Below are positions 37,778-56,994 of a DNA stretch of 64,000 nt, one piece after another. The notes below the pieces were generated by a model. It was given only the letters and a program-made list of their open reading frames with translations, made no database searches and was not told where the DNA came from. The translations under genes and the position numbers were made by a program. Source of the DNA: Halarcobacter sp. (GTDB lineage Bacteria; Campylobacterota; Campylobacteria; Campylobacterales; Arcobacteraceae); NCBI GenBank assembly GCA_048571215.1, contig CP182352.1:2240001-2304000 (forward strand), written 5' to 3'. The first letter of the stretch is position 1. The number at the start of each line of letters is the position of its first letter.

Positions 37778-38051
37778 TTTCTCACTATTAGAAACTATAG
37801 TTAGTATTTTTTTACTCTCAATAATCATAATAGGATTTAGTAGATATTCCTATTATGATAATTTTGATGAAGAGTTTATGAAATTAAACTCAATCGAAAA
37901 TGCCTTTACCTCAAAAAACTACAATAAAAATTTTCTCACTTCACAAGTCTCTATACAAATAATAAAAAACAAAAAAGATATAGAGATAAAAAATGTAAAA
38001 AAACTTAACTATAATGATAAAAAAATAAAAGTGTTTAAGTATGAATTATAA
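37740..38051 (+). CDS. Prepilin/pseudopilin-like protein
   Basis: KNSFSLLETIVSIFLL type IV N-terminal motif; real start probably GTG 37758 or TTG 37764. Confidence 0.65.
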   Translation: MPMKKHVSLGKNSFSLLETIVSIFLLSIIIIGFSRYSYYDNFDEEFMKLNSIENAFTSKNYNKNFLTSQVSIQIIKNKKDIEIKNVKKLNYNDKKIKVFKYEL

Positions 38052-38391
38052 AAACTCTTTTACCCTACTAGAAATAATTGTTGTAATCTTTATTGGTTCT
38101 ATTTTTTTTATTTACACCTTTATTTTTACAAAAAATATATATGAAGTAAACAATCAAAATAAAAAAACTGCTATTTTAAAAATAGATTTAAATTCAACAA
38201 AAATAATCCTACAAAAAAATATTAATCTAACAAAAAATAAACTTATTTATAAAAATAACTCTTTATATTTAGATGATAAACTATTATTAGAAAATGTTAC
38301 TTCCTTCTCAAAAAAGATAGATTCTAAATATATACATATAGATATTACACTTGAAGAGAAAATTAAACAAAAATGGATTTTAAAGTTATGA
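38041..38391 (+). CDS. Prepilin/pseudopilin-like protein
   Basis: KNSFTLLEIIVVIFI. Confidence 0.7.
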   Translation: MNYKNSFTLLEIIVVIFIGSIFFIYTFIFTKNIYEVNNQNKKTAILKIDLNSTKIILQKNINLTKNKLIYKNNSLYLDDKLLLENVTSFSKKIDSKYIHIDITLEEKIKQKWILKL

Positions 38392-38729
38392 GAAAAAATT
38401 CATTTATCCTTCTTACAACCTTGATTCTAATCTTTATTTTTTCTTTTTTAATAATAAATATATTTGAAGTAAAAAGTTTAAACTCTCAAAATATAAACAA
38501 TCAATATAGATTTATCCAAGCAAAAAATCATCTTAATTTTTTGCAAGATTATATCAAGTCTTTAACTACCTTGAAACTACTTGATACAATATCAATAAAA
38601 GATGACAAATATAATATTTATGCAACTATTGAAAAAAAAGAAGAAAATTATGAGATAGATATCTATGTAAAAGCAAAAGATTTTAATATAAGTTTACATA
38701 AAAAAATATTTAGAAAAAAAGAGAGTTAA
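38373..38729 (+). CDS. Pseudopilin-like protein (GspK/PilX-type N-terminus without Glu5)
   Basis: MRKNSFILLTTLILIFIFS...QAKN. Confidence 0.55.
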   Translation: MDFKVMRKNSFILLTTLILIFIFSFLIINIFEVKSLNSQNINNQYRFIQAKNHLNFLQDYIKSLTTLKLLDTISIKDDKYNIYATIEKKEENYEIDIYVKAKDFNISLHKKIFRKKES

Positions 38730-38739
38730 ATTCCCTTTT

Positions 38740-39342
38740 TTATAAAATCACATCCAAGACTTTTTTAGCTAAATTTAAAGCCTTTGTTCTATGGGAAAAC
38801 TCTTTTTTAACTTTAAAATCTAGTTCTCCTAAGGTTTTTTCATATCCATTTGGTATAAACATAGGATCATAACCAAAACCACCATCTCCTAGCTCTTTTG
38901 CAATCACCTCTCCATGCATCCAACCATGGACTGTATAAACTTCATCATCAAATACTATAGCTATACAAGCAGTATAATATGCCTTTGTTTTTTCTAAATT
39001 TTTCTCTTTTAGTTTTGAAATTAGTTTTGCGTTATTATCTTTGTCACTGGCATTTTCTCCTGCATACCTTGCTGAGTAAATACCAGGTTCATTATTAAGA
39101 GCAGGTACAGTTATACCACTATCATCGGATATCACTACAAATTTTTCTTCTAAATTTAATTTTTTAATTTGATTATAAATATTTTGAGCTTTTTTTACAG
39201 CATTTCCTTTAAAACTATCTTTATCCTCAACAACTTCAAACTCTCCAATTAACTCTTTAAAGGTTACAATATTATCATCTGGCATAAGTTTTTTAAACTC
39301 TTCAATTTTGCCTTTATTAGCTGTTGCTAAAACTATTTTCAC
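38740..39342 (-). CDS. rdgB: Non-canonical purine NTP pyrophosphatase (RdgB/HAM1)
   Basis: LATANKGKIEE, SDDSG, PGIYSARY, GFGYDPMF, SHR. Confidence 0.96.
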   Translation of the reverse strand: MKIVLATANKGKIEEFKKLMPDDNIVTFKELIGEFEVVEDKDSFKGNAVKKAQNIYNQIKKLNLEEKFVVISDDSGITVPALNNEPGIYSARYAGENASDKDNNAKLISKLKEKNLEKTKAYYTACIAIVFDDEVYTVHGWMHGEVIAKELGDGGFGYDPMFIPNGYEKTLGELDFKVKKEFSHRTKALNLAKKVLDVIL

Positions 39343-39792
39343 AATCTATCCTTTATACTTTTTACCATTTCCAAAACCTTGAGTTGAATTTATATTAACT
39401 CTAACATTTTTTATCGGGCATTTTAATTAAATCTACTTTAAGTATTATTTATTTTTTAATTCAAGAAGATATTATTTTGTAAATCTTTATAAATATAATT
39501 ATACATACTAATCAAATCTTATTTAAAATCAAAAGAAGAAAAACATAAAGTTGATATTAATGTAAAATCAGATTTATTATTAATAACAGATGATTTAATT
39601 GATGACTATGTAATTTATGAATTGTTAGATGTTGAATTAGGTGATGATGTAACTTATTATGAAAAATGGAAAATTTATATATTAAATTTTTTTACTAGAA
39701 TTAGAAGTTTTAATTTATTTATATACCAATCTAAGTTCTTTTAAGATACGCTATACTTCTTAGATTATTAAAGATAAAATGAGAAATAAATT

Positions 39793-42462
39793 ATGACTAA
39801 ATATAATTTTACATTAGAGTTTAAAAATGGAATATTTATAAATTTAGAATTGATAAATAAATGGTTTGATTTATTTCAAATTAAAACAAAAGCTTACGAT
39901 TCTAAAGATCTTAATGAAATATTTTCAAATAAGATTTTAGAACTTTTTTCTAGTTTAATGGAAACAATCAATATACCATTATTTAATGTAGGAAAAATTA
40001 CTCAAATAATTGAAAATGAAACTACATTACAAATAAATCTTTCTTTAAATAAAATTGAATATATACCAAAAGATATTTATACTCAAGTTCTCAATATAAG
40101 TGTAAATTTAATTATTGATTATTTTCAAAAAGAGATTACTACTGAAACTAAAAAAAATGTTTTTGATTGTGTTCAAAGTCAATTAATAAATCCTTTAAAT
40201 AACATTTCAAGTTCTGGAAAATCAACAATTCCTTTTTTAAAGGTAGTTTTTGAAAAAAACATTCCTTTTGAACATCTTGCTAATGGTATTTATCAGTTAG
40301 GTTGGGGAGCTAAAACAAGACTTTTTAATAGAAGTATTGTTGATAGTGATTCAGCAATAGGAAGTCAAATATCACAAAACAAAATTGCTACAGCTCAAAT
40401 GTTAAAGTATTTAGGACTTCCTTTTTCAAATCATATCGTAGTTACCACTGAAAAAGAGGCTTTAGAAGCTTCGAAAATATTAACATATCCCTTGGTTGTT
40501 AAGCCTTCAGATAAAAATAGAGATGAGGGTGTTTTTATAGATATTATGGATGAAAAAACTTTTTTAAAGGCTTTTAATGAAGTACTTTTTTTATCAATAA
40601 ATAAACAAGTCATTATTGAAAAACAAGTTTTAGGAGTTTGTCATAGGGTATTTATAGTAAAAAATAGATTACTTTATGCTGTAAAAAAATTGCCAATATA
40701 TATTAAAGGCGATGGTAAAAAAACTATATCTCAGTTAATTGATTACGAAAATAGTTTACTAGAAAATATTCCTCCTTGGAAAAGAACTTTTTATTATCCA
40801 AAAGATAAATTGACCTTAGAAGTTTTACAATCAAATAATATGGATTTTGAAACTATTTTAGAAAAAGGGGAAATTGCAAATTTAAGAAAAATAGAATCTA
40901 CACAATGGGGTGGAATAGATGAAGATGTAACATCATCTGTACATCAAGATAATATTGAAATAGCTATAAAAGCTGCGAGGGCTTTTAATCTTGACGTTGC
41001 AGGTATTGATATAATAAGTCCTGATATAAATAAACCTTGGCATGAAAATGGTGCAATAATAAATGAAATTAATTTCTCACCACTTTTAGGAGGTGGTGAT
41101 ATATCAAAAAAATCTATCCCTACTTTTATAGATACTTTCTTTAAAGACAACGGACGTATTCCAATTAGTGTATTTATAGGAGAAAATTCATTAGATAAAG
41201 TATTTGAAATACAAAAGAATATGTTTAAAAGTGGTAATAATGTTTTTGTTGTGTCTGATGAGGGATGCTTTAATCCAGATGGTTCGATATATAATATAAA
41301 CTTAAAGAATCACTATGCTAAATGTAAAGCACTACTAGCTGATAAAAGAGTAGAGTCTTTGATAATATCATCAAAAATTGACCCTTTTTTTAATGGTGAC
41401 CTTCCAATAGATAAGATTGATAATCTAGAGTTCTTTTCAAATACATCTAATACATGGAAAAATTTAGGAGAAAATATTTTAAGTGAAGATTATCATAATA
41501 TAATCAATGATTTTCTTCAAAAGAGTAAAGACCCCTTTTTTTATTTTAATCAAGGAAATTGTTTAAAGGAAAGTGGAAATTTTGTATATGCTAAAGAGGC
41601 ATATTTAAAAACAATAAATATAAATTCAAATCTTCTTGAGGTATATAATAATCTAGCAGTTACCCATCTAAGGTTAAAAGATTTACCTAGTGCTATTAAA
41701 GAGTATAGAAAAGCTGTAGAGCTACTTTTAAAAATAGATATATCAAAAATACCCCCACAAGAAATAATAAAATTTGATACAAAACATTTTGAACCAATTT
41801 TATATGAGACATTAGTTTTATTAGCAAAAAATTATATAAAAGCTTTTCCAACTTCAGGAACACTACTTGGCTTAGAGCGAGAAGGGGGATTGTTACCTTT
41901 TGATAAAGATATAGATATTGGTTTACCTTTTGAACAGATGAATGAAGCTACTATTTGTTTAGTTAAAAATGGATGGGAAGAGATTGAAGATTCATTTGGC
42001 TTGATTAACCCAAAAGCTTTTTTACATAAAAAATCTGGTTTGACTTTAGATATAGTTGGTTTTAAAAAAGATACTAATTCAAAAAAGGTTTTTGGTGGCT
42101 TATGGGTTGATGGTATTGCTGATAATCAACAAAGAATCACAGAGCATAATAATATGGAATTAAAAGAGATTCAATATCCATGTGGTTTGGGATGGGCATT
42201 AAAAGATTCTATTTCATGGCTTGTTTCAATATATGGAGAAAATTGGTGTATACCTGATAAAGGTTTTGATACGGTACTTGAAGCAAAAAATATAAAATCA
42301 TTTTCTTTACTTGTTCAGTATTATGGATATTCAAAAATTATTTTGTATTTTACTCAAAGAAAATTTGATAAATTAAATAGAACAATTAGCCTTTTTAGAG
42401 ACTATTTTCCTGATGATACTCTTTTTATAAAATTACAAAGGTATTTAAAAAATGAAAAATAG
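39793..42462 (+). CDS. Fusion protein: cyanophycin-synthetase-like ATP-grasp + TPR + LicD-family nucleotidyltransferase
   Basis: N-terminal part: YQLGWG, YPLVVKP, GDGKKTISQLI, AGIDIISPDINKPWHENGAIINEINFSP, GRIPI; two TPRs from about residue 580; GTLLGLEREGGLLPFDKDIDIG from about residue 689. Confidence 0.85.
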   Translation: MTKYNFTLEFKNGIFINLELINKWFDLFQIKTKAYDSKDLNEIFSNKILELFSSLMETINIPLFNVGKITQIIENETTLQINLSLNKIEYIPKDIYTQVLNISVNLIIDYFQKEITTETKKNVFDCVQSQLINPLNNISSSGKSTIPFLKVVFEKNIPFEHLANGIYQLGWGAKTRLFNRSIVDSDSAIGSQISQNKIATAQMLKYLGLPFSNHIVVTTEKEALEASKILTYPLVVKPSDKNRDEGVFIDIMDEKTFLKAFNEVLFLSINKQVIIEKQVLGVCHRVFIVKNRLLYAVKKLPIYIKGDGKKTISQLIDYENSLLENIPPWKRTFYYPKDKLTLEVLQSNNMDFETILEKGEIANLRKIESTQWGGIDEDVTSSVHQDNIEIAIKAARAFNLDVAGIDIISPDINKPWHENGAIINEINFSPLLGGGDISKKSIPTFIDTFFKDNGRIPISVFIGENSLDKVFEIQKNMFKSGNNVFVVSDEGCFNPDGSIYNINLKNHYAKCKALLADKRVESLIISSKIDPFFNGDLPIDKIDNLEFFSNTSNTWKNLGENILSEDYHNIINDFLQKSKDPFFYFNQGNCLKESGNFVYAKEAYLKTININSNLLEVYNNLAVTHLRLKDLPSAIKEYRKAVELLLKIDISKIPPQEIIKFDTKHFEPILYETLVLLAKNYIKAFPTSGTLLGLEREGGLLPFDKDIDIGLPFEQMNEATICLVKNGWEEIEDSFGLINPKAFLHKKSGLTLDIVGFKKDTNSKKVFGGLWVDGIADNQQRITEHNNMELKEIQYPCGLGWALKDSISWLVSIYGENWCIPDKGFDTVLEAKNIKSFSLLVQYYGYSKIILYFTQRKFDKLNRTISLFRDYFPDDTLFIKLQRYLKNEK

Positions 42463-42889
42463 AAATATTTTAGTAATGGGAGTTTTTGATCTTTTTCATG
42501 TAGGTCATTTAAGATATTTAGAGTATTCTAAAAATCAAGGAAACTCTTTGATTGTTGGAGTTCTTAGTGATAAATCATGTCTAAAAATAAAAAGTAAAAA
42601 GCCCATCATCTCACAAGATCAAAGAATGGAAATAGTTAAAAGTTTAAAATGTGTTAATAGTGTTGTATCTCTACCTGATGAAAATATTTTAAAAGATGAA
42701 GTAAAACTTTTAGAATGGATTAATAATTTAAATATCAATGCAGTTGTAGTTAGTAAGGAGTGGGAAGGTTCCACTAAATGGGAAAAAAGAGTGCCCCTGT
42801 TTAAACAAAATGGCATAGATATTATTTATGCTCCTCATACAAATGGAATCTCAACTAGTGAAATAATGAATAGGATTTTATTAAAATAA
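42452..42889 (+). CDS. Cytidylyltransferase (TagD / glycerol-3-phosphate cytidylyltransferase-like)
   Basis: GVFDLFHVGH, LIVGV, HTNGISTS; overlaps the previous stop codon. Confidence 0.9.
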   Translation: MKNRNILVMGVFDLFHVGHLRYLEYSKNQGNSLIVGVLSDKSCLKIKSKKPIISQDQRMEIVKSLKCVNSVVSLPDENILKDEVKLLEWINNLNINAVVVSKEWEGSTKWEKRVPLFKQNGIDIIYAPHTNGISTSEIMNRILLK

Positions 42890-43049
42890 TGAAAAATATG
42901 TAAAATAAAAATAGATTTTCTACTTAAATATGATATTATATAAAATAGTTATATAAAGATAAAGTATCTTAAATTATAAGTGTTAGTTTTTATAAAGATA
43001 GTAAGATTTTCTTTTATTGAATCTTATGATAATGAAAGAGAGAAGATAT

Positions 43050-44111
43050 ATGATAAATTGTAATCAGCCTTTTTTATTTAGATATGACCCAGAAGTATTA
43101 GATATTTTTGAAAAGAACTCTATAAGTTTAGTTATTTCAACCTATCAAATAGGAAAAGTTATTATTTTAAGTGCTGAAAATGGAAAAATTGTGCAATTAC
43201 CAAGAACTTTTGAAGGTGTAATGGGTATATCATGTGATGATGAAACAATTAGTATTGCTACAAAAGATGAAGTTATAGTATGTCAAAACTCTACTGAGTT
43301 AGCTAAAACATATCCTCCATCATCAAATAAATATGATGCAATGTATATTCCTCAAGCTAAATACTACACTGGTGAATTAGCAATGCATGATATTTCATAT
43401 ACAAAAGATGGTTTAATTGGAATAAATACAAGATTTTCTTGTTTAGTCAAAATAGATGACAAGTTTAATTTTACTCCAATTTGGAAGCCATATTTTATAA
43501 ATAAATTTGAACCAATTGATGCTTGTCATTTAAATGGAATGGCTGTTGAAAATGACGAAATTTTATATGCTACAGCTTTTGGTAAAACTTCCACTTCTGA
43601 AGGATGGAGAAAAAACAAATATGATTCTGGACTTTTAATAGATGTTAAAAAAAATAAAATTCTTTTAAGTGATTTAAGTATGCCACATTCTCCTAGAGTT
43701 TATAAGAATTTTATTTATCTTACTGAATCAGCTAAAGGTGAACTTATTAAAATCAATAGAAAAACTTTAAAAAAAGAAGTTTTATGTTCACTGCCAGGTT
43801 TCACAAGAGGTATAGATATAAGAGGTGAACTTTTATTTCTTGGTATGTCAAAATTTAGAGAAGATCATTTATATGGAGATGCTCCAATTTTGAAAAAATA
43901 TGATAGTTTGAAGTCAGGAGTAGCAATATTCCATTTACCAACAAATACTCTAATTGGTGTAATTGAATATATTAATACCGTAAGAGAAATATATGATGTA
44001 AAAACTCTATCACATATTAGACCAAATATCTTAAATACAAATGATTCAAAATTTAAATTATCATTGTCAACACCAGAATTCACATATTGGGGAGAAAAAA
44101 ATGAATTTTAA
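43050..44111 (+). CDS. TIGR03032 / DUF4915-like protein
   Basis: STYQIGK, YYTGELAMHD, NTRFSCL, DACHLNG, LSMPHSPR, LPGFTRG, EIYDV; start taken at MINCNQ. Confidence 0.85.
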   Translation: MINCNQPFLFRYDPEVLDIFEKNSISLVISTYQIGKVIILSAENGKIVQLPRTFEGVMGISCDDETISIATKDEVIVCQNSTELAKTYPPSSNKYDAMYIPQAKYYTGELAMHDISYTKDGLIGINTRFSCLVKIDDKFNFTPIWKPYFINKFEPIDACHLNGMAVENDEILYATAFGKTSTSEGWRKNKYDSGLLIDVKKNKILLSDLSMPHSPRVYKNFIYLTESAKGELIKINRKTLKKEVLCSLPGFTRGIDIRGELLFLGMSKFREDHLYGDAPILKKYDSLKSGVAIFHLPTNTLIGVIEYINTVREIYDVKTLSHIRPNILNTNDSKFKLSLSTPEFTYWGEKNEF

Positions 44112-47100
44112 AAACAAAACTATATCAAAAATTGTTAGTAATATTTTATTTAAGGATATGAATAAGAATATTTTAACAATCATGTCCACCGGTATAATAG
44201 TCACTTCATTAAGTGCAAATGGTCCCTTTGTATCGGGAACTAATCCTTTATCCTCAGTATCATACTCCCAACAAACTGCACCTACCTTTGGAGATTTAGA
44301 TGGAGATGGAGATTTAGATGCTTTAATTGGAGCATGGGATGGTAAGCTATATTACTACATAAATAATGGAACTAAAAAATCTCCCTCTTTTAGTTCTTCT
44401 ACTATGCCAAGTGGTTTACCTAGTACTTATGCTGGTCTTACTCAAATGCCTGCTATTGGGGATATAGATAATGATGGTGATTTTGATGTAGCTATAGCAA
44501 GACAAGAGACTAATACTACAGCTTCAAGTTCTATAGTTTATTATAAAAATAATGGGGATGGTACATTTAGTTCTTTTTCCCCCTCAGGATTACCTACTTC
44601 AACTGGAGAGAAATGGGGAACACTTACTTTTGCCGATGTTGATCAAGATGGAGATCAAGACTTATTTATGGCTCATGGAAAAGGTGGCGGTCTATCTTAT
44701 TATAAAAATAATGGTAGTGGAAATTTTTCAACTGCTACAGCTCCTTCAGGAATGCCTTCTGGTGTTTCTTATCCAATATTTACCTTTGGTGATGTAGATG
44801 GAGATGGTGATTTAGATATGTTTCATGGTGAATATAAAAATACAGAGATAGAGTATTATCGAAATAATAGTGGTACTTTTAATCTTGTAGCCCTTAATAC
44901 AGCTTTTCCTTCTTCTGACTTAACAAATCCTGGTACAAGTTCTACTCCATGGTTAATGCCTAATTTGGTTGATATAGATAATGATGGAGATTTAGATCTT
45001 TTTATTGGTAACTATGCAAAAGCTGGAAATAATGTTGGAATTATTTATAGAGAAAATAGTGCAACATCATTATCTTCAATATCTCCAAGTGATAATAGTA
45101 CGAATGTTTCAATCGATACTAACCTTGTGCTTACTTTTTCAAGTGCAGTCAATGTTAATAGTGGGAATATTTATATTAAAAAAACATCAGACAATACATT
45201 AGTAGAAACTATAGATGTAACATCTGGACAAGTTACAGGTTCGGGAAGTACTACTATTACTATTAATCCATCATCAGATTTAAGTAATGGTATAGAATAT
45301 TATGTATTAACAGATTCTACAGCCTTTATAAATGCATCTACAAGTAGTGCTGTAACTGGAATAAGTGATACAAAATTTTGGAGTTTTACAACAGTATCTG
45401 CACCTTCAACCGACTCAGACACAACACTAACAGCCTCAGCAACAGTTACAGAACCTGTAAGTTTATCAACTACAGTTGATACAGTTGGTGAAGCTGTAGA
45501 TTTATTTGATTTTACTATCACTGATGGTGGAAGTGGTGACACTTTATCAACAGATATATCTCAAATAGTTTTAAATACTTCTGGAACTGGTGATTTTAGT
45601 AAAGTAACATGGAGACTAAATGGACCTGATGCTACAAATGTAACAGGTGCTTATAACTCTAGTACAAACACTATTACTTTTAGTGGTTTATCTTTATCAA
45701 TTACAGATGGAGGAAATGAAACATATACTGTAAATGGGTATTTTAATAATAACACAGGTCTTACAGAAGATCAAACTTTTATACTAAGTGTAGATGGGGA
45801 TACTGATTTAACACTTGATGCTTCTAAAACACAGATGACAGGTTCAAATAATCCAATCACAAATGGTGGTGGAACTACAGTAGATGTTACAGCTACAAAA
45901 CTTACTTTTTCTACTGAACCATCTACAACAGTTGTTAGTGGAAGTACATTTTCAACTCAGCCAGTTATAAAAGCTGTAGATGAATCTGGCAATGTAGATA
46001 TAGATTTTAGTTCAAATATTATTTTAAGTGAGAATGGAGCTGGTTCATTAGGTGGAACAACTACAGTTGTAGCTTCTTCTGGTGTTGTAACTTTTTCAGG
46101 AATCTCTTATAATGCAGTTTCAGATTCTGATTCAAACTTCACAATCACAGCATCAGCAACAGGCTTAACATCTGACACATCAAATAGTATTAATCCAGAT
46201 GTAGTAGCCACAAAACTTGTATTTACAACACAACCAAGCCCAACTTCACTTCAAAATAGCGTACAAACAGACTTTGTTACAGACCCAGTAGTGGAAGCAA
46301 GAGATGCAAATGATATTTTAGATATTGATTATTATAATTCAGTAACTATCTCTGAAAATGGTGCAGGGACAGGAAGTTTTACAAATAACTCTACGAATGC
46401 TAGTGGAGGGGTTGCAACATTTACAGGACTTACTCTTTCTCATAATGCAGATGAAACATTTAAGTTAGTTGCTACAGGTGGAGATAGTATTTCAGGAACT
46501 AGTTCAAATCTTACAGTTACTTCAAATAATGCTCCAGTAACAACACTTCCAAGTGCACCAACTATCCATGAAGATGCAACAAATGTAGCCTTTGCCAATA
46601 CAATACAAATAACAGATGGGGATAGTGATAATCAAACAGTTACCCTAAGTGCTACAAATGGAACATTAAGCTTAACTCCAACTGGACTAAGTTTTACAAC
46701 AGGTGACGGTACAGATGATGCAACTATGACCTTTAGTGGAACCTTAGCAGCAGTAAATACAGCACTAGATTCATTAACATTTAGTCCAACTGCAGACTAT
46801 GATGGGAGTGCATCTTTAAGAGTTCAAACAAATGATGGAAATGGTGGAACGGATGATGATACATTAAATTTATCAGTTTTAAATGCACCAGAGATTACAA
46901 GTATAGTAAGAGGAACACCAAGTTCACAAAATACAAATGCAGATTCTTTAACATTTTATGTATACCTAGATAGTAATATAACAACAGATGCAACAGCAGC
47001 AGATTTTCAAGTTATCGGAACAACAACAGCAACAGTTACAAGTGTTACAAGACAAAGTATATATTATGAAGTAGTAGTTTCTGGTGGAAATCTAGCTTCA

Positions 47101-50100
47101 TTTAATGGAAGTGTTGGATTAAAGTTTGTAGATGATAATAGTGTACTAGATTCAAATGGTGTACCAATAGGTGGTGATGGAATTGACCACTTTACAACAG
47201 GTGAAACATATACAGTTGATAATACAGCACCAACTACAATAATATCAAATATAGACATAAGTGCAGATACAGGTACAAGCTCAACAGACTTTTTAACAAA
47301 AACAGCAAGCCAAACTATAACTGCAACCCTTTCAACTGCACTTGCAGGAGGTGAAGTATTATATGGTTCTATAGATGGTGGAAGTAATTGGATAGATATC
47401 ACTTCAAAAGTATCTGGCTCAGCAATCTCTTGGGATGGAGCAACACTAAGTGGAACAAACTCAATAAAACTTAAAGTAACAGATGCAGCAGGAAATGATG
47501 GATCAATAGCTACTCAAAGTTATACTATAGATACCTCTGCTCCAACAGCAAACCTAACAAGTGCAACAGATAATGTAGGAAGTGTAACAGGAGGATTAAG
47601 CTCAGGAGATACAACTGATGATACAAGTTTATTATTAGCAGGTACTAATGAATCAGGTTCAACAGTAAAAGTATATAATGGAACAACTCTTCTTGGAACT
47701 GCAACAGTTACTGGAACATCTTGGACTTATAGTGCTACTATTGCAGATGGTACAACTTATCAATTTAATGTAAAAGAAACAGATAGTGCTGGAAATGAAA
47801 GTACTGCTACTTCTAACTTTACTGTTATTGGTGATACCTCTGCTCCAACAGCAAACCTAACAAGTGCAACAGATAATGTAGGAAGTGTAACAGGAGGATT
47901 AAGCTCAGGAGATACAACTGATGATACAAGTTTATTATTAGCAGGTACTAATGAATCAGGTTCAACAGTAAAAGTATATAATGGAACAACTCTTCTTGGA
48001 ACTGCAACAGTTACTGGAACATCTTGGACTTATAGTGCTACTATTGCAGATGGTACAACTTATCAATTTAATGTAAAAGAAACAGATAGTGCTGGAAATG
48101 AAAGTACTGCTACTTCTAACTTTACTGTTATTGGTGATACCTCTGCTCCAACAGCAAACCTAACAAGTGCAACAGATAATGTAGGAAGTGTAACAGGAGG
48201 ATTAAGTTCAGGAGATACAACTGATGATACAAGTTTATTATTAGCAGGTACTAATGAATCAGGTTCAACAGTAAAAGTATATAATGGAACAACTCTTCTT
48301 GGAACTGCAACAGTTAGTGGAACATCTTGGACTTATAGTGCTACTATTGCAGATGGTACAACTTATCAATTTAATGTAAAAGAAACAGATAGTGCTGGAA
48401 ATGAAAGTACTGCTACTTCTAACTTTACTGTTATTGGTGATACCTCTGCTCCAACAGCAAACCTAACAAGTGCAACAGATAATGTAGGAAGTGTAACAGG
48501 AGGATTAAGCTCAGGAGATACAACTGATGATACAAGTTTATTATTAGCAGGTACTAATGAATCAGGTTCAACAGTAAAAGTATATAATGGAACAACTCTT
48601 CTTGGAACTGCAACAGTTACTGGAACATCTTGGACTTATAGCGCTACTATTGCAGATGGTACAACTTATCAATTTAATGTAAAAGAAACAGATAGTGCTG
48701 GAAATGAAAGTACTGCTACTTCTAACTTTACTGTTATTGGTGATACCTCTGCTCCAACTATTGCAATAACAAGTGATAAAGATGCACTAAAAGCAGGAGA
48801 AACAGCAACAATCACCTTTACCTTAAGTGAAGCAAGTAGTAACTTTGCAAGTGATGATGTAAGTGTAAGTGGAGGAACATTAACAAACTTTAGTGGAAGT
48901 GGAACAAGCTATACAGCAACCTTTACTCCAACTGCAGACTCAACAACTAATGGAACAATTGATATAGCAAGTTCTAAGTTTACTGATGCAGCAGGAAATA
49001 ATAATAGTGCTGCAACTCAAAAATCTATAACAATAGATACAGTAGTGCCAAGTGTAACAATAAGTTCAAGTTCAGATTCACTAAAAGCAGGAGAAACAGC
49101 AACAATCACCTTTACCTTAAGTGAAGCAAGTAGTAACTTTGCAAGTGATGATGTAAGTGTAAGTGGAGGAACATTAACAAACTTTAGTGGAAGTGGAACA
49201 AGCTATACAGCAACCTTTACACCAACTGCAGACTCAACAACTAATGGAACAATTGATATAGCAAGTTCTAAGTTTACTGATGCAGCAGGAAATAATAATA
49301 GTGCTGCAACTCAAAAATCTATAACAATAGATACAGTAGTGCCAAGTGTAACAATAAGTTCAAGTTCAAATGCACTAAAAGCAGGAGAGACAGCAACAAT
49401 CACCTTTACCTTAAGTGAAGCAAGTAGTAACTTTGCAAGTGATGATGTAAGTGTAAGTGGAGGAACATTAACAAACTTTAGTGGAAGTGGAACAAGCTAT
49501 ACAGCAACCTTTACACCAACTGCAGACTCAACAACTAATGGAACAATTGATATAGCAAGTTCTAAGTTTACTGATGCAGCAGGGAATAATAATAGCGCTG
49601 CAACTCAAAAAGTAATAACAATTGATAGTGAAATTCCTTCTGTAGTTATAACAACAGATAAAAATAGTGCAATAAATGGTGAAGTAGTAAACCTAAGCTT
49701 TGCCCTAAGTGAAGATAGTTCAGATTTCACAGTTGATGATATAACAGTATCTGGTGGAACAATAGATAACTTTGAACAAGATAATACAAATTCAAAATTG
49801 TATACAGCAAAACTAACAATAGATAATACTACCACCACAAAAACCACTTTAGATATAAGTGCAAGTAAGTTTGAAGATGCAGCAGGAAACCCAAATAATG
49901 TAGCTTTACAAAAAACTATTACAATCTTGCCAAGTGTATTAACATATACTCCAAGCTTAGATGCAACAGATATAGAACTAGATTCAACATTAGTATTAGA
50001 GTTTAGTGAAAAGTTAAATAAAGGTACTGGAAATATTCTTATAAAAAGATATAGTGATGATAATGTAGTTGAAACAATTGATGTAACAGGTACAAATGTA

Positions 50101-53016
50101 GTTATAGAAAACCCTAACGCAGGAAATAGCCTAACAAATACTCAAGTTACAATCACAAGAACTGTACCATTTACATTAAATACTAAATACTATATAGAGA
50201 TTCCAAATACATCCTTTAAAGATGTTGAAAATAACTTCTATACAGGAATATCTTCAAAAGATAGCTGGAAATTTACTTCTGTAGATAATCATGCTCCAAC
50301 TATCACAAGTGATGGAGGTGGTGCAACTGCAACATTAAATGTAGATGAGAACCAAACAGCAGTAACAACAGTAGTAGCAAGTGATGTTGATAATGGACAA
50401 ACTATAAACTACAGTATTTCAGGAACTGATGCAGCTTCATTTAATATAGATTCCTCAACAGGAGTACTTACTTTTAAAACAGCACCAAATTATGAAGTTA
50501 AAAACTTATATGGTGTTACAGTAACTGCAACAGATAATGGAGGAAATACCTTAAGTGATAGCCAAGATTTAACAGTTAATATAAATGATGTAAATGATGA
50601 CCCTGTAATAACAATAAATAATACATTAACAACAGATGAAGATAATGCAAAAGATTTATTGTTTACTTATACAGATGAAGATTCAAATACAGTAACAGCA
50701 TCTGAAAAGACAGCACCAAGTTATGGGTCAATAGTAATAAGTAGTGATAAAATCACCTATACTCCAAATGCTAACTTTAATGGAAATGATAGCTTTGTTG
50801 TAACCTTAACAGATAATAATGGCTTTAGTGTAGATAAAGCAATAAGTGTAACAGTTAATCCTATAGATGATGCACCAGTTATTACAACTACCTTAGATAA
50901 CCAATCAGAGAATGAAGATGGTAAAGGTTTAGTTATATCGTTAACAACAACAGATGTAGATAATGATTTAAATACAACGCCAGCAACATATAGTGCAACA
51001 TCTTCAGATGAAAATATAGCAACAGCATATATTCAAAATGGAAAATTAATAGTTGTACCAAAACCAAATGCAAATGGAACAGTTACAATTACAGTTACAA
51101 CAACAGTAAATGGGAAAAGTTCAACAAAAACCTTTACCTATACCTTAGTTAGTGTAAATGATGCCCCAACTATTTCAAATATTGCAGATATTTCTCATGA
51201 ACAAAGTTCAAGTGCTATAAATAAAACAATCACCTTTGATATCTGGGATGATGTGGATGTAACAAGCTTAAGTGTAACAAGCTCAAATACAAACTTACTT
51301 CCAAATAGTGATATATCTGTTTCAAAACTATCTTCAACACAAGGTGAGTTAAGTTATACAATTTCTGCAAATAACGCAGGAACAACTACTGTGGAAGTTG
51401 TAGCAAAAGATGCTGAAAATCTAGAGTATAAAGAGAGCTTTAATATAAATGTAAAAGCTTCAAATGATGCTTTATGTGTAGAGAATACAAAAACAACATT
51501 GGTATTTGATACAATAAAAGAGAATAACATCTCTCAAGATGCAATAACATCAAATCTTGATTTGGTTAATACAATAGCTTCAATTTGTAGCTCAACTATA
51601 ACTTGGAGTATCTCAGATACAAGTGTTTTAGATGTAAATGGTATAGTAACTAAAGGTACAACAGATAAAACAGTAACTGCAACAGCAAATATAGCAAAAG
51701 GACAATTTAGTACTACAAAAGTATTCTTGCTTACAATTGTAAAGAATGCAATAAGTGATAGTGAAGCCTTAGATAAACTTCTGTTTGAAAATATAAAAGG
51801 TGATAACCTAAGTAGATTGAAAATCACTTCTAAACTTAACTTGCTAGATACAATCTTAGGTAAAACCATCACTTGGAGTGTAGATGATGATAGTGTAATC
51901 TCACCATACTCAGGATATGTAACAAGAGGTTCAAGCGATACACCTATAGTCTTAACAGCAAAAGTAGGAGCTGAAACGAAAACCTTTAATCTAACAGTTT
52001 TAAAAGATGAAAGTACAAATACAGCTGCTCAAATAGTTGCAAAAGATAAAGAGTTACTAAGTATAGACTCTATTTTAGGAGAGAATAAAGATGATAATAA
52101 TATTATCTATAACCTAGAAAAACCACTTCCAAGCTTAGGTGTAAATGGTTCAACAATAACTTGGAGTAGCTCAAATGAAAACTATATCACAAATGATGGG
52201 GATGTATTAAGAGATGAGAATGCAGATAAATATGTGGTGTTAACAGCAACTATTACAAATGGAAGTGAAACAACTACAAAAGAGTTTATACTAAAAGTTC
52301 TTCAAAATAAAATAGAAACAAATGATGAAACAACTTTTAAAAATGCAAGTGATACTCCAACAGGTACAAGTGTTACAACAACAAATAATGGTAGTGATAC
52401 AACAACAGAGGCAAGCTTTACTAATACAATTTTAAATATTGTAGAAAAAGTGGTATCTCAAGATAGTATAAACAATATTATTGAGTTTGCACAAAAAATA
52501 GTAAATGTATACCTAAATACAGATGGAACTTCTCAATCAACACTGCAAAATCAAGATGGAACAAGTTCTTCTATAGAAACACAAACTAAAGGTTCAACTA
52601 CAAATGTAGATGATAGTGGAAATGTTCAAACAACAAATGGTAGTGTAACTCTAAAATTAAATAGTGATGGAACAGTTACCCATGAAGTTACAAAAGGAGC
52701 TTTAAAAACAACAGCAGACTCTACAATCTCTGGTTCAAATGTAAAAGAGGATGGAAGTGGTAATGTTGAAACCACCTCAGAAGTTACTCAAGGTGGATTT
52801 GTATATAAAGCAGTTGTAACAACAAATAGTCAAGGGGAAACTACTACTAAGTTTGTAAAAGTAGATTTATCTACAGGGGAACAAAGTGAAGTTGATAAAA
52901 CAATAAGTGATACAACCCCATATCAAGCAGGAAATAAAGTAGAGATTAGTAAAGTAAATGGTGTTTTATATATTAAAACAACAACTCCACTTGATGGTAG
53001 TATAGTAATTGAATAA
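44101..53016 (+). CDS. Giant (~2970 aa) surface adhesin: five FG-GAP repeats, Ig-like tandem domains, cadherin-like domains, three atrophied-Ig-like domains and an unrecognised C-terminal beta-rich domain
   Basis: GGAGA RBS before ATG 44101; leader ending ...VTSLSA; DxDxDGDxD five times; DAAGN/DSAGN-type Ig repeats; NDAP/VDENQT cadherin-like linkers; ITWS..G.V three times. Confidence 0.9.
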   Translation: MNFKNKTISKIVSNILFKDMNKNILTIMSTGIIVTSLSANGPFVSGTNPLSSVSYSQQTAPTFGDLDGDGDLDALIGAWDGKLYYYINNGTKKSPSFSSSTMPSGLPSTYAGLTQMPAIGDIDNDGDFDVAIARQETNTTASSSIVYYKNNGDGTFSSFSPSGLPTSTGEKWGTLTFADVDQDGDQDLFMAHGKGGGLSYYKNNGSGNFSTATAPSGMPSGVSYPIFTFGDVDGDGDLDMFHGEYKNTEIEYYRNNSGTFNLVALNTAFPSSDLTNPGTSSTPWLMPNLVDIDNDGDLDLFIGNYAKAGNNVGIIYRENSATSLSSISPSDNSTNVSIDTNLVLTFSSAVNVNSGNIYIKKTSDNTLVETIDVTSGQVTGSGSTTITINPSSDLSNGIEYYVLTDSTAFINASTSSAVTGISDTKFWSFTTVSAPSTDSDTTLTASATVTEPVSLSTTVDTVGEAVDLFDFTITDGGSGDTLSTDISQIVLNTSGTGDFSKVTWRLNGPDATNVTGAYNSSTNTITFSGLSLSITDGGNETYTVNGYFNNNTGLTEDQTFILSVDGDTDLTLDASKTQMTGSNNPITNGGGTTVDVTATKLTFSTEPSTTVVSGSTFSTQPVIKAVDESGNVDIDFSSNIILSENGAGSLGGTTTVVASSGVVTFSGISYNAVSDSDSNFTITASATGLTSDTSNSINPDVVATKLVFTTQPSPTSLQNSVQTDFVTDPVVEARDANDILDIDYYNSVTISENGAGTGSFTNNSTNASGGVATFTGLTLSHNADETFKLVATGGDSISGTSSNLTVTSNNAPVTTLPSAPTIHEDATNVAFANTIQITDGDSDNQTVTLSATNGTLSLTPTGLSFTTGDGTDDATMTFSGTLAAVNTALDSLTFSPTADYDGSASLRVQTNDGNGGTDDDTLNLSVLNAPEITSIVRGTPSSQNTNADSLTFYVYLDSNITTDATAADFQVIGTTTATVTSVTRQSIYYEVVVSGGNLASFNGSVGLKFVDDNSVLDSNGVPIGGDGIDHFTTGETYTVDNTAPTTIISNIDISADTGTSSTDFLTKTASQTITATLSTALAGGEVLYGSIDGGSNWIDITSKVSGSAISWDGATLSGTNSIKLKVTDAAGNDGSIATQSYTIDTSAPTANLTSATDNVGSVTGGLSSGDTTDDTSLLLAGTNESGSTVKVYNGTTLLGTATVTGTSWTYSATIADGTTYQFNVKETDSAGNESTATSNFTVIGDTSAPTANLTSATDNVGSVTGGLSSGDTTDDTSLLLAGTNESGSTVKVYNGTTLLGTATVTGTSWTYSATIADGTTYQFNVKETDSAGNESTATSNFTVIGDTSAPTANLTSATDNVGSVTGGLSSGDTTDDTSLLLAGTNESGSTVKVYNGTTLLGTATVSGTSWTYSATIADGTTYQFNVKETDSAGNESTATSNFTVIGDTSAPTANLTSATDNVGSVTGGLSSGDTTDDTSLLLAGTNESGSTVKVYNGTTLLGTATVTGTSWTYSATIADGTTYQFNVKETDSAGNESTATSNFTVIGDTSAPTIAITSDKDALKAGETATITFTLSEASSNFASDDVSVSGGTLTNFSGSGTSYTATFTPTADSTTNGTIDIASSKFTDAAGNNNSAATQKSITIDTVVPSVTISSSSDSLKAGETATITFTLSEASSNFASDDVSVSGGTLTNFSGSGTSYTATFTPTADSTTNGTIDIASSKFTDAAGNNNSAATQKSITIDTVVPSVTISSSSNALKAGETATITFTLSEASSNFASDDVSVSGGTLTNFSGSGTSYTATFTPTADSTTNGTIDIASSKFTDAAGNNNSAATQKVITIDSEIPSVVITTDKNSAINGEVVNLSFALSEDSSDFTVDDITVSGGTIDNFEQDNTNSKLYTAKLTIDNTTTTKTTLDISASKFEDAAGNPNNVALQKTITILPSVLTYTPSLDATDIELDSTLVLEFSEKLNKGTGNILIKRYSDDNVVETIDVTGTNVVIENPNAGNSLTNTQVTITRTVPFTLNTKYYIEIPNTSFKDVENNFYTGISSKDSWKFTSVDNHAPTITSDGGGATATLNVDENQTAVTTVVASDVDNGQTINYSISGTDAASFNIDSSTGVLTFKTAPNYEVKNLYGVTVTATDNGGNTLSDSQDLTVNINDVNDDPVITINNTLTTDEDNAKDLLFTYTDEDSNTVTASEKTAPSYGSIVISSDKITYTPNANFNGNDSFVVTLTDNNGFSVDKAISVTVNPIDDAPVITTTLDNQSENEDGKGLVISLTTTDVDNDLNTTPATYSATSSDENIATAYIQNGKLIVVPKPNANGTVTITVTTTVNGKSSTKTFTYTLVSVNDAPTISNIADISHEQSSSAINKTITFDIWDDVDVTSLSVTSSNTNLLPNSDISVSKLSSTQGELSYTISANNAGTTTVEVVAKDAENLEYKESFNINVKASNDALCVENTKTTLVFDTIKENNISQDAITSNLDLVNTIASICSSTITWSISDTSVLDVNGIVTKGTTDKTVTATANIAKGQFSTTKVFLLTIVKNAISDSEALDKLLFENIKGDNLSRLKITSKLNLLDTILGKTITWSVDDDSVISPYSGYVTRGSSDTPIVLTAKVGAETKTFNLTVLKDESTNTAAQIVAKDKELLSIDSILGENKDDNNIIYNLEKPLPSLGVNGSTITWSSSNENYITNDGDVLRDENADKYVVLTATITNGSETTTKEFILKVLQNKIETNDETTFKNASDTPTGTSVTTTNNGSDTTTEASFTNTILNIVEKVVSQDSINNIIEFAQKIVNVYLNTDGTSQSTLQNQDGTSSSIETQTKGSTTNVDDSGNVQTTNGSVTLKLNSDGTVTHEVTKGALKTTADSTISGSNVKEDGSGNVETTSEVTQGGFVYKAVVTTNSQGETTTKFVKVDLSTGEQSEVDKTISDTTPYQAGNKVEISKVNGVLYIKTTTPLDGSIVIE
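47530..48741 (+). repeat. Four near-identical 303-bp (101-aa) Ig-domain tandem repeats
   Basis: GATACCTCTGCTCCAAC recurs at 47530, 47833, 48136, 48439 and 48742. Confidence 0.97.
48787..49610 (+). repeat. About three near-identical 294-bp (98-aa) Ig-domain tandem repeats
   Basis: CTAAAAGCAGGAGA recurs at 48787, 49081 and 49375. Confidence 0.95.
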
Positions 53017-53026
53017 GGATATAAAA

Positions 53027-53311
53027 ATGAAAAAGATATCAATAATTGTATTAAGTATTTTAAGCTCAATAGTATTTACTGCTTGTGGAGGGGGAGGAGG
53101 AGACTCCTCTTTCAAACAAACAATAGTAGATATAACAGTTACTTGTGTAGCAAGCCCAACTTCAACAGACTTTGATACTTATAATACTTTGTATACAGGA
53201 GATACTGTTGTAAATGATCAGCCAGGTACTACAGTTACAACCTATCATAATATAAATGGTGAAACAAAAGTGTGCTTAAATACAGGTGCAGCACATATTG
53301 TAAGGAAATAA
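53027..53311 (+). CDS. Small lipoprotein (94 aa)
   Basis: MKKISII...FTAC lipobox, Gly5 tether, two further Cys; its AAGGA RBS overlaps the adhesin stop codon. Confidence 0.85.
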   Translation: MKKISIIVLSILSSIVFTACGGGGGDSSFKQTIVDITVTCVASPTSTDFDTYNTLYTGDTVVNDQPGTTVTTYHNINGETKVCLNTGAAHIVRK

Positions 53312-53312
53312 G

Positions 53313-53933
53313 ATGAAAGTATTAAATAATATAAAAACACTAAGTTTGTTAAGTTTAGTAGTATTTGCAGTAAATCTAAATGCAGATTCTAGTTTAGAAA
53401 AAACCTTAGATGATAAAAATGTATATGTGGGAGTATCATTAGGTTATTCTAATCTTCATATGTCAAAGGATGATAAGGTAGGAAGTGTAGCTTTAATAGA
53501 GAATATAGACTCCTCTTCAAAAAACATCTTGTTAGAAACAGGGTTTGAATATAATAAAAATTTAGAATTCTCATTAAACTACCAAAGGGTAGATAATGAT
53601 GATGTAAACTTAGATAATGTATATGTTTCTTTAAAATATAAATTCCCACAAGATAAGTTTACTCCTTATGTAGCAGCAAACTTAGGATACTCACAATTAT
53701 CTTGGCAAACAAGACCAGTTGCAACCATAAATAATGATACAAGCTCAGGTTCATATTTAGTTGGTACAACTTTAGGATTGCTATATCCTTTAACTACTAA
53801 GGTTAGTTTAAATCTAAACTATCAAGTTAATATGTTAGACCATGAAACTAGTGTTGAAAGTTTACCTAATAGATCTATATTAAATCATGATTTACTTCAA
53901 TCTTTTAATGTTGGGATTAGGTATACTTTTTAA
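53313..53933 (+). CDS. Small outer-membrane beta-barrel protein (about 8 strands)
   Basis: Signal peptide, YVGVSLGYS, FTPYVAANLGYS, C-terminal beta-signal VGIRYTF. Confidence 0.88.
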   Translation: MKVLNNIKTLSLLSLVVFAVNLNADSSLEKTLDDKNVYVGVSLGYSNLHMSKDDKVGSVALIENIDSSSKNILLETGFEYNKNLEFSLNYQRVDNDDVNLDNVYVSLKYKFPQDKFTPYVAANLGYSQLSWQTRPVATINNDTSSGSYLVGTTLGLLYPLTTKVSLNLNYQVNMLDHETSVESLPNRSILNHDLLQSFNVGIRYTF

Positions 53934-53958
53934 AAAGTATATTTATGGCTAGTTTTTT

Positions 53959-53990
53959 AAGGAGTACTTATACTCCTTTAGGACTTTTTT
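53959..53990 (+). terminator. Hairpin terminator closing the adhesin locus
   Basis: AAGGAGTA-ctta-TACTCCTT followed by a T-rich tract. Confidence 0.6.
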
Positions 53991-54094
53991 ATTATTTGAT
54001 TTAAATAAAGATTCTAAAAAGTACGATTTTATGGAAACTTAAATCAAATTTAAAATATTAAATTTAAAAATTCCTAAACATCTTATTAACTTTA

Positions 54095-55450
54095 ATGATA
54101 TATAATCTTTGTTTATTTTATTATATGGGATTATATATGATTAAATCTATTTTACCTCTTAGTTCAATTATTGCTCTTAGATTTTTCGGTCTTTTTTTAG
54201 TTTTACCTGTTTTATCAGTATATGCAATCAAGCTACAAGGTGCTACAACAACCTTAGTTGGTATAGTTATTGGTGGATATGCTCTAACTCAAATGATATT
54301 TCAAGTACCTTTTGGAGTTATGAGTGATAAACTTGGGAGAAAAGGCACTATTATTACAGGGCTTTTACTTTTCGCCATTGGTTCTATTTTTTGTGCAATT
54401 GCAAATGATATTTTACTTTTATTACTTGGAAGATTTTTACAAGGTGCTGGTGCTATTGGTGCAGTTGTAACAGCTATGATTAGTGATTTGGTTAAAGAGG
54501 AACAAAGGCCAAAAGCTATGGCTTTAATGGGTGGCTCTATTGGTATTGCCTTTGCAGCTTCTATGCTTCTTGGACCAACAATTGGTTCACTTGCTGGTGT
54601 TCCTGCACTATTTTATCTTACTGCAATAATAGCACTTGTTTCTATAGTGGTTTTAGTTAAAGCTGTTCCAAATCCACCTAAAATAACCCATAGATACAAT
54701 GGGAAAGCCCAGTTATCTAAAGTCTTATTAAATGGCAATTTAATAAAAATGAACATAACTAACTTTTTACAAAAAGGTTTAATGACCTTTGCATTTATGG
54801 TTATCCCTTTAGTTCTAATAAAAGAACACAGTTGGCAAATGAGTGAATTATGGAAAGTTTACCTTCCTTCAATGATATTTGGTGTTTTAGCTATGGCACC
54901 AGCTGCTATATTAGCAGAAAAAAAAGGTAAATTTAAAGAAGTACTTGCTGTTGGTATTTTATTTTTTGCAATCTCCTATTTGATTATTGGTTTTAGTACA
55001 AATACATTGATGTTTATTATTGGTGTAGTTATCTTTTTTATTGGTTTTAATATGCATGAACCTATCATGCAATCTTTAGCATCAAAGTTTGCAAAAGTTC
55101 ACCAAAGAGGTTTGGTTTTAGGTATTTTTAACTCTTGCGGTTATTTTGGTACATTTTTAGGTGGACTATTTGGAGGGATTTTTTACGAAAAGGTTTCCCT
55201 ATCAGATTTAGTAATTATTATATCTGTAATTTGTGTACTTTGGATTATACTTATTTTAACTATGCCAAATCCAGCAAAAAAGAAAACTTCATATATCCAT
55301 GTTGATAATGTAAACAATGATAACTTACATAAACTAGATACGCTAAATGGTATTGATGAATGGTATATCAATGAATCAGAGAGTTTAGTTGTAGTAAAAT
55401 ATGATAGTCAAGAGCAAGAAGAATCTCAAATAGCAGAACTTATTAAGTAG
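54095..55450 (+). CDS. MFS transporter (YajR-like)
   Basis: LRFFGLFLVLPV, FQVPFGVMSDKLGRK, GRFLQGAGA; real start probably MIKSIL. Confidence 0.9.
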   Translation: MIYNLCLFYYMGLYMIKSILPLSSIIALRFFGLFLVLPVLSVYAIKLQGATTTLVGIVIGGYALTQMIFQVPFGVMSDKLGRKGTIITGLLLFAIGSIFCAIANDILLLLLGRFLQGAGAIGAVVTAMISDLVKEEQRPKAMALMGGSIGIAFAASMLLGPTIGSLAGVPALFYLTAIIALVSIVVLVKAVPNPPKITHRYNGKAQLSKVLLNGNLIKMNITNFLQKGLMTFAFMVIPLVLIKEHSWQMSELWKVYLPSMIFGVLAMAPAAILAEKKGKFKEVLAVGILFFAISYLIIGFSTNTLMFIIGVVIFFIGFNMHEPIMQSLASKFAKVHQRGLVLGIFNSCGYFGTFLGGLFGGIFYEKVSLSDLVIIISVICVLWIILILTMPNPAKKKTSYIHVDNVNNDNLHKLDTLNGIDEWYINESESLVVVKYDSQEQEESQIAELIK

Positions 55451-56984: not shown

Positions 56985-56994
56985 AGGAGAAAAG

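Follow-up and report, generated by a model that had tools for sequence, protein, structure and literature searches.

The window analysed here is a 64,000-nucleotide (nt) stretch of the Halarcobacter sp. genome (contig CP182352.1, positions 2,240,001 to 2,304,000 of the forward strand; the genome, G000, is a single contig of 3.6 Mb). It holds six plus-strand open reading frames (ORFs), g1 to g6, flanked by rdgB and a major facilitator superfamily (MFS) gene. We consider it probable that these genes make up a mosaic surface-adhesin island, inserted between the two flanking genes, with a display arm and a modification arm. The strongest and most novel result is a conserved pairing of the C-terminal tail of a giant adhesin, g4, with the small lipoprotein g5, for which a confident interface was predicted. 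This best-supported feature was missed by the original prediction, made from the sequence alone, which had read the six genes as a self-contained system for decorating and exporting the adhesin. The features discussed are as follows.

38740–39342, minus strand: rdgB, left core flank (Ham1p_like, TIGR00042)
39355–54076, no strand: inserted block of ~14.7 kb, set by identity breakpoints against the empty sites L002/L003
39793–42462, plus strand: g1, 889 amino acids (aa), cytoplasmic; CphA-like ATP-grasp (~1–560), tetratricopeptide repeats (TPRs, ~577–650) and LicD/fukutin-type nucleotidyltransferase (~655–889)
42452–42889, plus strand: g2, 145 aa, HxGH-type cytidylyltransferase (PF01467)
43050–44111, plus strand: g3, TIGR03032/DUF4915 protein, cytoplasmic six-bladed beta-propeller
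44101–53016, plus strand: g4, 2,971-aa adhesin
52444–53016, plus strand: C-terminal domain of the adhesin, ~190 aa; residues 2955–2971 are the predicted lipoprotein-binding tail
53027–53311, plus strand: g5, 94-aa lipoprotein, predicted clamp for the adhesin tail
53313–53933, plus strand: g6, 206-aa small outer-membrane beta-barrel with C-terminal Phe (PF13505 above cut-off)
53951–53985, plus strand: terminator-like hairpin followed by a T-run (fold test against shuffles)
54137–55450, plus strand: MFS transporter gene, right core flank

A conserved adhesin tail and lipoprotein pair

The adhesin g4 runs from a probable Sec signal through an FG-GAP tip and an Ig-like stalk (Big_5, Big_13, Big_12, cadherin, Big_9 and aBig_2) to an unclassified C-terminal domain; it is 30% Ser+Thr and contains near-perfect internal repeats (303 bp × 4.1 at 47530–48758 and 294 bp × 2.9 at 48780–49627). 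No membrane anchor of its own, whether transmembrane segment, lipobox or barrel, was found in the chain. The C-terminal ~190 aa had no match in Pfam, NCBIfam or, by sequence, the PDB, and a protein search with their profile, its coverage limited to 334–2000 aa, returned six. Elsewhere the domain caps proteins of widely varying length and content (FG-GAP, NHL, Ig or cadherin). The lipoprotein g5 consists of a lipobox (Cys20), a Gly/Ser linker and a 70-aa domain with two invariant Cys; it matched no family in Pfam or in further sequence searches, and sequence search found no solved structure resembling either partner. Atlas searches with the C-terminal domain and the lipoprotein produced nothing usable, which counts neither as novelty nor as absence.

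A g5-type lipoprotein lies directly 3′ of the C-terminal domain in all 27 loci opened in the family, 13 of which supplied the lipoproteins for the search profile, the other 14 being independent of it. All 21 C-terminal-domain matches in the family genome search have a lipoprotein. Across 351 genomes drawn from the whole class, the profile of the lipoprotein matched seven besides G000, in three other families, and none of the 245 genomes of the two largest families; in those three families all ten intact matches follow a large ORF, seven of these ORFs matching the domain profile. Lipoprotein matches in frames of 29–35 aa (L202 and L203 outside the family, G002:C22 and G002:C12 inside) were not counted.

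Co-folding of the C-terminal domain with g5 gave a complex score of 0.86, against 0.00 for the best of three controls, and the runs had at least 96% of contacts in common, with a partner predicted local distance difference test (pLDDT) score of at least 88. The mark for this score, which 116 of 157 solved complexes but only 2 of 215 mismatched pairs reached, is a rough guide here, as our own alignments were used. The predicted interface mainly sets adhesin residues 2955–2971 against lipoprotein residues 55–63 and 66–78, and its best pairs are antiparallel, which we read as strand pairing. The conserved pairing, the predicted interface and the lack of an anchor in the giant together suggest that g5 provides a lipid anchor for the adhesin in trans. 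This is the simplest reading, and we regard binding and tethering of g4 by g5 as likely.

How the pair reaches the surface is less directly indicated. None of the export systems that we looked for matched: the g4 chain contains no autotransporter barrel in Pfam or NCBIfam (type Va); no two-partner secretion (TPS) domain was found in it by a scan that finds TPS domains in other loci, and g6 has only 206 aa; there is no HemolysinCabind match and no transporter gene in the insert, as a type I or LapA-type system would have; and g6 matches OMP_b-brl only, with no TPR, unlike Slam of the type XI secretion system (T11SS). The barrel is next after the lipoprotein in 16 of the 27 family loci, is absent from 10 and is cut off by a contig end in one; outside the family a barrel-like gene is next in 3 of the 10 loci. 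With a barrel in just 16 of 27 display loci, g6 is unlikely to be the exporter. G000 encodes gspD/E/F/G and three display loci abut a type II secretion system (T2SS) operon, and we infer that the g4–g5 pair leaves by this route.

The nearest mechanistic precedent is PilC/PilY, whose C-terminal tail engages minor pilins by beta-augmentation (PMC13711793); as there, a large adhesin would be held by strand addition from its conserved C-terminal tail to a partner, but here the partner, g5, is a single lipoprotein of no known family and not a pilin complex. Surface display by lipid anchor is also familiar from the T2SS export of the lipoprotein PulA, from Slam/T11SS and from the RcsF–OmpA complex, in which a lipoprotein is paired with a barrel (PMC7857515). 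Here, unlike in those systems, anchor and adhesin are separate gene products, and g6, small as it is, is not a Slam protein of TPRs and 14 strands. Our open-access literature search found no published description of the adhesin-tail/lipoprotein pair, and tail-and-clamp anchoring looks undescribed, a novelty suggested by synteny and one structure prediction. Cell retention of the giant non-autotransporter, non-RTX adhesins of Campylobacterota fits no known system that we matched; a two-part tail-and-clamp anchor, if confirmed, would be a new mode of protein display in Gram-negative bacteria and could serve as a compact protein-capture tag.

In G006 (L089:7796–8374) just the C-terminal domain and the lipoprotein are left where G016 has TIGR03032 and a full giant, and G028 (L197/L249) encodes a 273-aa lipoprotein with the clamp domain at its C-terminus. 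One to three small phage-tail-collar-like genes and further enzyme genes stand beside giants in L058, L073, L086, L039 and L249, and G000 has a triplet of such collar-like genes at 0.764 Mb.

Insertion and mosaic structure of the locus

Six co-oriented genes between rdgB and the MFS gene were confirmed, as was their tight coupling apart from one gap: g1/g2 and g3/g4 overlap by 11 nt each, g4 and g5 are 10 nt apart and g5 and g6 1 nt, and 160 nt separate g2 from g3. The domain assignments of the original prediction also hold (CphA-like ATP-grasp, TPR, LicD, CTP_transf_like, TIGR03032, FG-GAP/Ig, lipobox and OMP_b-brl). An empty site, which it had proposed looking for, is present in 22 of 24 genus relatives, where rdgB and MFS stand head to head; the remaining two (L012 and L018) hold another, different insert. 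Similarity to the empty sites L002/L003 stops near 39354 and restarts at 54077, and contigs of runs X3, X6 and X7 bridge 39341/39342 directly to 54128. On these three lines of evidence the block is a 14.7-kb insertion. Its genes g1–g3 have a GC content of 26–27%, against 31–33% in three flanking core genes. No target-site duplication was seen by eye at its ends, the ORF annotation shows no recombinase among the six ORFs, and domain-library scans of the six proteins found, as predicted, no glycosyltransferase, flippase or capsule family; the reading as a capsule locus was rejected.

The terminator proposed to close the run is plausible: the hairpin and T-run at 53951–53985 beat 200 of 200 shuffles (z −3.7) in a hand-chosen 51-nt stretch, but reached only z −1.4 in a wider one and were absent from the output of a consensus terminator scan. 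The promoter scan was uninformative (98 sites against 98.7 expected), and the g2–g3 gap has no stable hairpin. Upstream of g1, a 72-codon acidic stop-free frame with no obvious start (39526–39741, plus strand) is perhaps a remnant; no homologue of it was found in G000 or the fetched loci.

Among 183 other genomes of the family, DUF4915 matched 15, the ATP-grasp part 10, the adhesin C-terminal domain 14 and the lipoprotein profile 16; no full-length match to the LicD part occurred, only six short motif-level matches. None of 93 TPR-LicD loci (41 from genomes, 52 from metagenomes) contains g3, g5, g6 or the adhesin C-terminal domain, and the complete six-gene set is in no other genome searched. 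The locus is thus a mosaic of three modules (display; TIGR03032; TPR-LicD plus cytidylyltransferase) and not a conserved six-gene system, and we therefore examined each module separately. The same absences count against any joint action of g1–g2 and the adhesin. The neighbourhood analysis that had been proposed gave a divided answer: TPR-LicD keeps company with a cytidylyltransferase and TIGR03032 with exported giants, but the two never meet in those 93 loci. The link to surface proteins survives at the level of the single module, each of which appears, on gene neighbourhoods, to be tied independently to exported surface proteins in other genomes; self-containment does not.

One contig bears on linkage between modules. 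In X7, a run of another, independent metagenome study, contig 26 (4,855 nt; a single contig, from a close relative) matches first the end of g1 and g2 (42119–42867; 52 of 749 positions differ) and further on the adhesin stalk (45415–46392; 84 of 978 differ). Between these segments the window has 2.55 kb with g3 and the FG-GAP tip, the contig ~2.06 kb of unlike sequence instead. The g1–g2 pair and the adhesin, found together in no other genome searched, do co-occur on this contig. Its layout indicates that in a related strain g1–g2 stayed with the stalk while the g3-plus-tip segment was swapped, which speaks for linkage and not for function. The unlike stretch could encode a divergent TIGR03032 protein and a shorter tip, like G016. 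In X6 g3 and the FG-GAP tip, and in X5 g1–g2, had low or absent cover, which was not counted as evidence.

Enzymes encoded upstream of the adhesin

Residues 577–889 of g1 belong to the TPR-LicD family of 300–500-aa proteins. Pfam LicD scored 24.8 against a cut-off of 22.6 bits, over the N-terminal motif region only, and the nucleotidyltransferase motif (G689-TLLG, R696 and D704-x-D706-x-D708) is invariant in 22 sequences. The best Foldseek match of the TPR-LicD model (pLDDT 94) was FKRP at E 1.7e-5 (VIA Z 12.4, root-mean-square deviation (rmsd) 3.3, 157 aligned, LnuA tying within about 1). The partner g2 passes for the superfamily domain only and lies below the TagD and RfaE equivalog cut-offs (65.9 against 165.4 bits for TagD, TIGR01518). 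Its closest structures are glycerol-3-phosphate and ethanolamine-phosphate cytidylyltransferases.

The pairing of TPR-LicD with CYTIDYLYLTRANSFERASE recurs. Of 34 strong genome loci, a set that omits seven weak ones (L131–L137, E above 1e-30), 27 have a g2-type gene either fused to TPR-LicD or no more than 5 kb away; three of the others are cut by contig ends and two have another cytidylyltransferase type. In 4 of 21 aligned homologues the g2-type domain is fused to TPR-LicD. Within three ORFs of TPR-LicD a surface-protein gene occurs in 18 of the 34 loci, or 12 of 19 genus-level groups, by a classification made partly by eye: flagellin (5), S-layer/RTX (5), Ig giant (5), autotransporter (2) and TpsA-like (1). 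As a rough background, 62 of 3,103 ORFs (2%) are near a giant in G000. The plasmid collection gave no TPR-LicD match, and the open-access literature search no published description of the cassette. In LicD-type enzymes and FKRP, a CDP donor gives up its phospho-alcohol to a glycan (PMC4873967, PMC10434233); by analogy, the TPR-LicD part would use a CDP donor to place a phospho-alcohol on a hydroxyl group of its acceptor. Whether g1 and g2 act on g4 we judge to be an even call.

A cassette of flagellin, a ~300-aa gene with no Pfam match, TPR-LicD and cytidylyltransferase was seen in L108, L110, L121, L122 and L126, and again in the metagenome loci L141, L143, L144, L145, L147, L150 and L157; it is a candidate flagellin phosphodiester-modification island.

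The first 560 residues of g1 resemble the G domain of cyanophycin synthetase, in which the catalytic His267 lies in the P-loop (PMC9427784). As in that domain and in CphA2 (PDB 7wac, 8fxh), the module is an ATP-grasp and the Arg309 equivalent (R285) is kept, but His267 is Arg both in g1 and in the family consensus. Against TIGR02068, g1 scored 208.9 versus 850 bits, and the match ends near 431–528, before a full M domain. Cyanophycin synthesis by g1 was rejected on this failure of CphA membership. Homologues of the ATP-grasp, unlike CphA, stand alone or are fused to AMP-binding domains or LicD. The proposed link to LicD recurs elsewhere: P0009 has the two fused in reverse order (38–39% identity to g1), L153 encodes them as separate near neighbours, and one row of L125 holds a more distant ATP-grasp, an Ig giant, a TPR-sulfotransferase-LicD fusion, a cytidylyltransferase and a type I exporter. 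These arrangements argue that the g1 fusion reflects a shared pathway, in which the ATP-grasp would form an amide on the donor. A surface-protein gene lies within ~5 ORFs in 7 of 10 family ATP-grasp loci. A second pairing of ATP-grasp and giant was seen within G000 itself, where L045 (3.562–3.578 Mb) has two distant CphA-like ATP-grasp genes in a cluster before a 2,563-aa giant.

The third enzyme candidate, g3, is a clear member of its family (TIGR03032, 331.9 against a cut-off of 251.5 bits; PF16261, 336 against 35), and its model is a six-bladed propeller (pLDDT 96). H113, D157, C159, H160 and H213 are invariant in 81 sequences, and N162 of an H-x-N motif is kept in 80 of the 81. In blade number and, as a sequence pattern, in its three conserved His (H113, H160 and H213) and H-x-N, g3 recalls arylsulfate sulfotransferase (ASST; PDB 3elq; PMC13426309; bioRxiv 10.64898/2026.10.08.757629). 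Unlike ASST it has no signal peptide and no detectable profile homology (hhalign probability 0.3, with a shallow ASST profile of eight sequences), and the ASST Arg 18 residues after the second His (Arg374/Arg335) is missing, positions 177 and 178 being Leu/Phe and Gly/Ser/Ala; the conserved Arg of the g3 family are at 253 and 270. Its model matches 3elq at Z 19.4 over 268 aligned residues (rmsd 3.8); many propellers match, and 3elq ranks 21st among them. Identity as ASST was set aside, no sequence or profile link having been detected and the fold matches being those of generic propellers. Partner domains, counted as the best five families per protein, in 58 longer homologues from the best 150 matches were sulfotransferase (17), Asp/Asn hydroxylase (9), GT41 (7), GT2 (5) and GNAT (4). 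TIGR03032 lies beside a large exported protein in all seven plasmid loci opened (of 16 matches), from four bacterial classes, and in 11 of 14 family loci, whatever the export route; these 14 exclude four partial DUF4915 matches and G091. No paper under either family name was found in the open-access literature search. On balance, we expect that g3 does act on g4. Four proteins directly 3′ of TIGR03032 (L038:14441, L058:6164, L059:2655 and L041:1530) share a basic N-terminal leader of ~120 aa that g4 does not have.

Proposed mechanism and alternatives

In the model that follows, gene content, co-occurrence, folds and motifs come from the analysis and the g4–g5 interface from prediction; the export route and all of the chemistry we infer. 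The adhesin would leave the cytoplasm by Sec, as its N-terminus suggests, and its last 17 residues are predicted to pair, as an antiparallel strand, with the 70-aa domain of g5. The lipid anchor given in trans would hold the adhesin by its C-terminus with the FG-GAP tip outermost, the pair most likely crossing the outer membrane through the T2SS of the genome, with g6 as an optional docking or assembly partner rather than a pore. The less certain arm is the upstream slot, whose cytoplasmic enzymes would be exchangeable and would act on the adhesin ahead of its export. There, g2 would activate an alcohol-phosphate with CTP, and the TPR-LicD part of g1 would attach the phospho-alcohol either to Ser/Thr residues of g4 or to a sugar that another enzyme had put there. 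The ATP-grasp would ancestrally have added an amide-linked group to the CDP donor, and g3 would be a propeller enzyme with a His triad, carried along with the adhesin tip.

A bolder version, which we hold only tentatively and rather doubt, is a split-lipoprotein mode of display in free-living Campylobacterota with an exchangeable modifying cassette. Any Sec-exported giant with the C-terminal domain would then be caught by its cognate 70-aa lipoprotein and anchored tail-first; in this locus a fukutin-like enzyme would put an amide-elaborated phospho-alcohol directly on protein Ser/Thr, g1 being the first bacterial fukutin-like enzyme of such a kind, alongside a His-triad TIGR03032 group-transfer enzyme.

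Several further observations weigh against a two-armed island. On the display side, the signal peptide of g4 was assessed by hydropathy alone, the complex was predicted from alignments of neighbouring genes with 16 and 14 rows, and the complex tool is reported to pass 7 of 44 blind neighbours. On the modification side, g1 has D244 (P-loop) and K299 where 119 of 119 homologues have Gly and Arg; its ATP-grasp departs from the family at 12 of 97 conserved columns, against a family median of 2, and its LicD part at 9 of 60. The known acceptors of LicD and FKRP are glycans (PMC10434233, PMC4873967), yet the locus has no glycosyltransferase. No surface-protein gene is near TPR-LicD in 16 of the 34 loci, including all eight from Marinomonas; the proteins adjoining TIGR03032 have no domain common to all; and the 160-nt gap parts g2 from g3. 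The 84% identical P0002, one of those 119, likewise has Gly and Arg at the equivalents of 244 and 299, and the ATP-grasp of g1 may be impaired in this strain.

The alternative that survives best, though we think it unlikely, is that the display trio is real and the enzymes are unrelated to it: g1–g2 would have arrived separately at an insertion-prone site and would decorate flagellin, another surface protein or a lipopolysaccharide (LPS) or capsule glycan, or be decaying. It is favoured by the lack of another searched genome with both the display and g1–g2 modules, by the different insert of L012 and L018 at the same site, by the changes at invariant sites of the ATP-grasp, and by the company kept by TPR-LicD homologues, which adjoin flagellin in 5 of 34 loci and lie inside an LPS core cluster in L111; G000 itself has three flagellin genes and many other giants. 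Against this, X7 contig 26 keeps g1–g2 upstream of the stalk at 91–93% identity even though the intervening segment differs, the surface neighbour of TPR-LicD, where present, is usually within one to three genes, and the LicD part is the best-kept part of g1, 93% identical to its orthologue P0002.

It is improbable, in our view, that g5 instead faces the periplasm and acts as a chaperone or pilotin-like factor, binding the tail transiently and passing the adhesin to the secretion machine or barrel, the adhesin then being released or anchored otherwise. Such a factor would fit the same synteny and predicted interface, and also the three display loci that abut T2SS operons. A transient partner would nevertheless leave the giant with no other anchor. 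There is moreover one lipoprotein per giant, even where a genome holds several giants, and the Cys-Gly-Gly start of g5 recurs in 4 of the 17 giant surface-type ORFs of G000, which are lipoproteins in their own right.

In a full six-gene system the adhesin would be exported through the barrel and none of the three enzyme genes could be missing. Such a system would fit the tight coupling, single orientation and single insertion of g1–g6, but is highly improbable: 10 of 27 family loci and 7 of 10 outside loci lack the barrel, TIGR03032 stands next to just 2 of the first 15 display loci opened, and a barrel of 206 aa is small for a cargo of 300 kDa.

Known modification systems

For the modification arm of the mosaic island, the dedicated cytoplasmic adhesin modifiers HMW1C (with HMW1) and Aah and TibC (with autotransporters) are the obvious comparison. 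As with these, a cytoplasmic transferase gene lies beside a large Sec-exported adhesin on which, we propose, it would act before export; unlike these, g1 is of the LicD/fukutin type (phosphodiester, CDP donor), and comes with its own cytidylyltransferase and an ATP-grasp, and the locus has no GT41 or GT9. A cytidylyltransferase with a LicD-domain phosphotransferase is the arrangement of FKTN/FKRP with ISPD (PMC4873967) and of LicD with LicC (PMC10434233), and FKRP is the best fold match here; TPR-LicD differs from both in its TPRs, its HxGH-type cytidylyltransferase and the protein surface structures that are its neighbours. In Clostridioides difficile a small locus puts a phospho-linked amino-acid derivative on the protein glycan of type A flagellin (PMC4441256). 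The likeness is that a small locus is proposed to put a phospho-linked group on a surface protein, although in C. difficile a glycosyltransferase encoded in the locus adds GlcNAc first, unlike in g1–g6. The locus also offers testable substrates for two orphan enzyme families, TIGR03032/DUF4915 and TPR-LicD, and the neighbours of the latter suggest that flagellins, S-layers and adhesins are decorated by phosphodiester linkage.

Neighbouring genes

The lapG-lapG-lapD-like genes at 55570–59217, 3′ of the MFS gene, were considered as part of the system and rejected, since the same order in L263 marks them as flanking core. Three small pseudopilin-like ORFs (37740–38729) adjoin rdgB and, by eye, are kept in many genus relatives. 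A resistance-nodulation-division (RND) efflux permease is present in two ORF pieces (59382–59987 and 60387–62471) where its L263 counterpart is open for at least 818 aa, indicating a frameshift or an assembly error. A pyridoxal-phosphate (PLP) enzyme at 3660–5153, with a strong yet sub-threshold BesB match, adjoins a cystathionine gamma-synthase-like gene.

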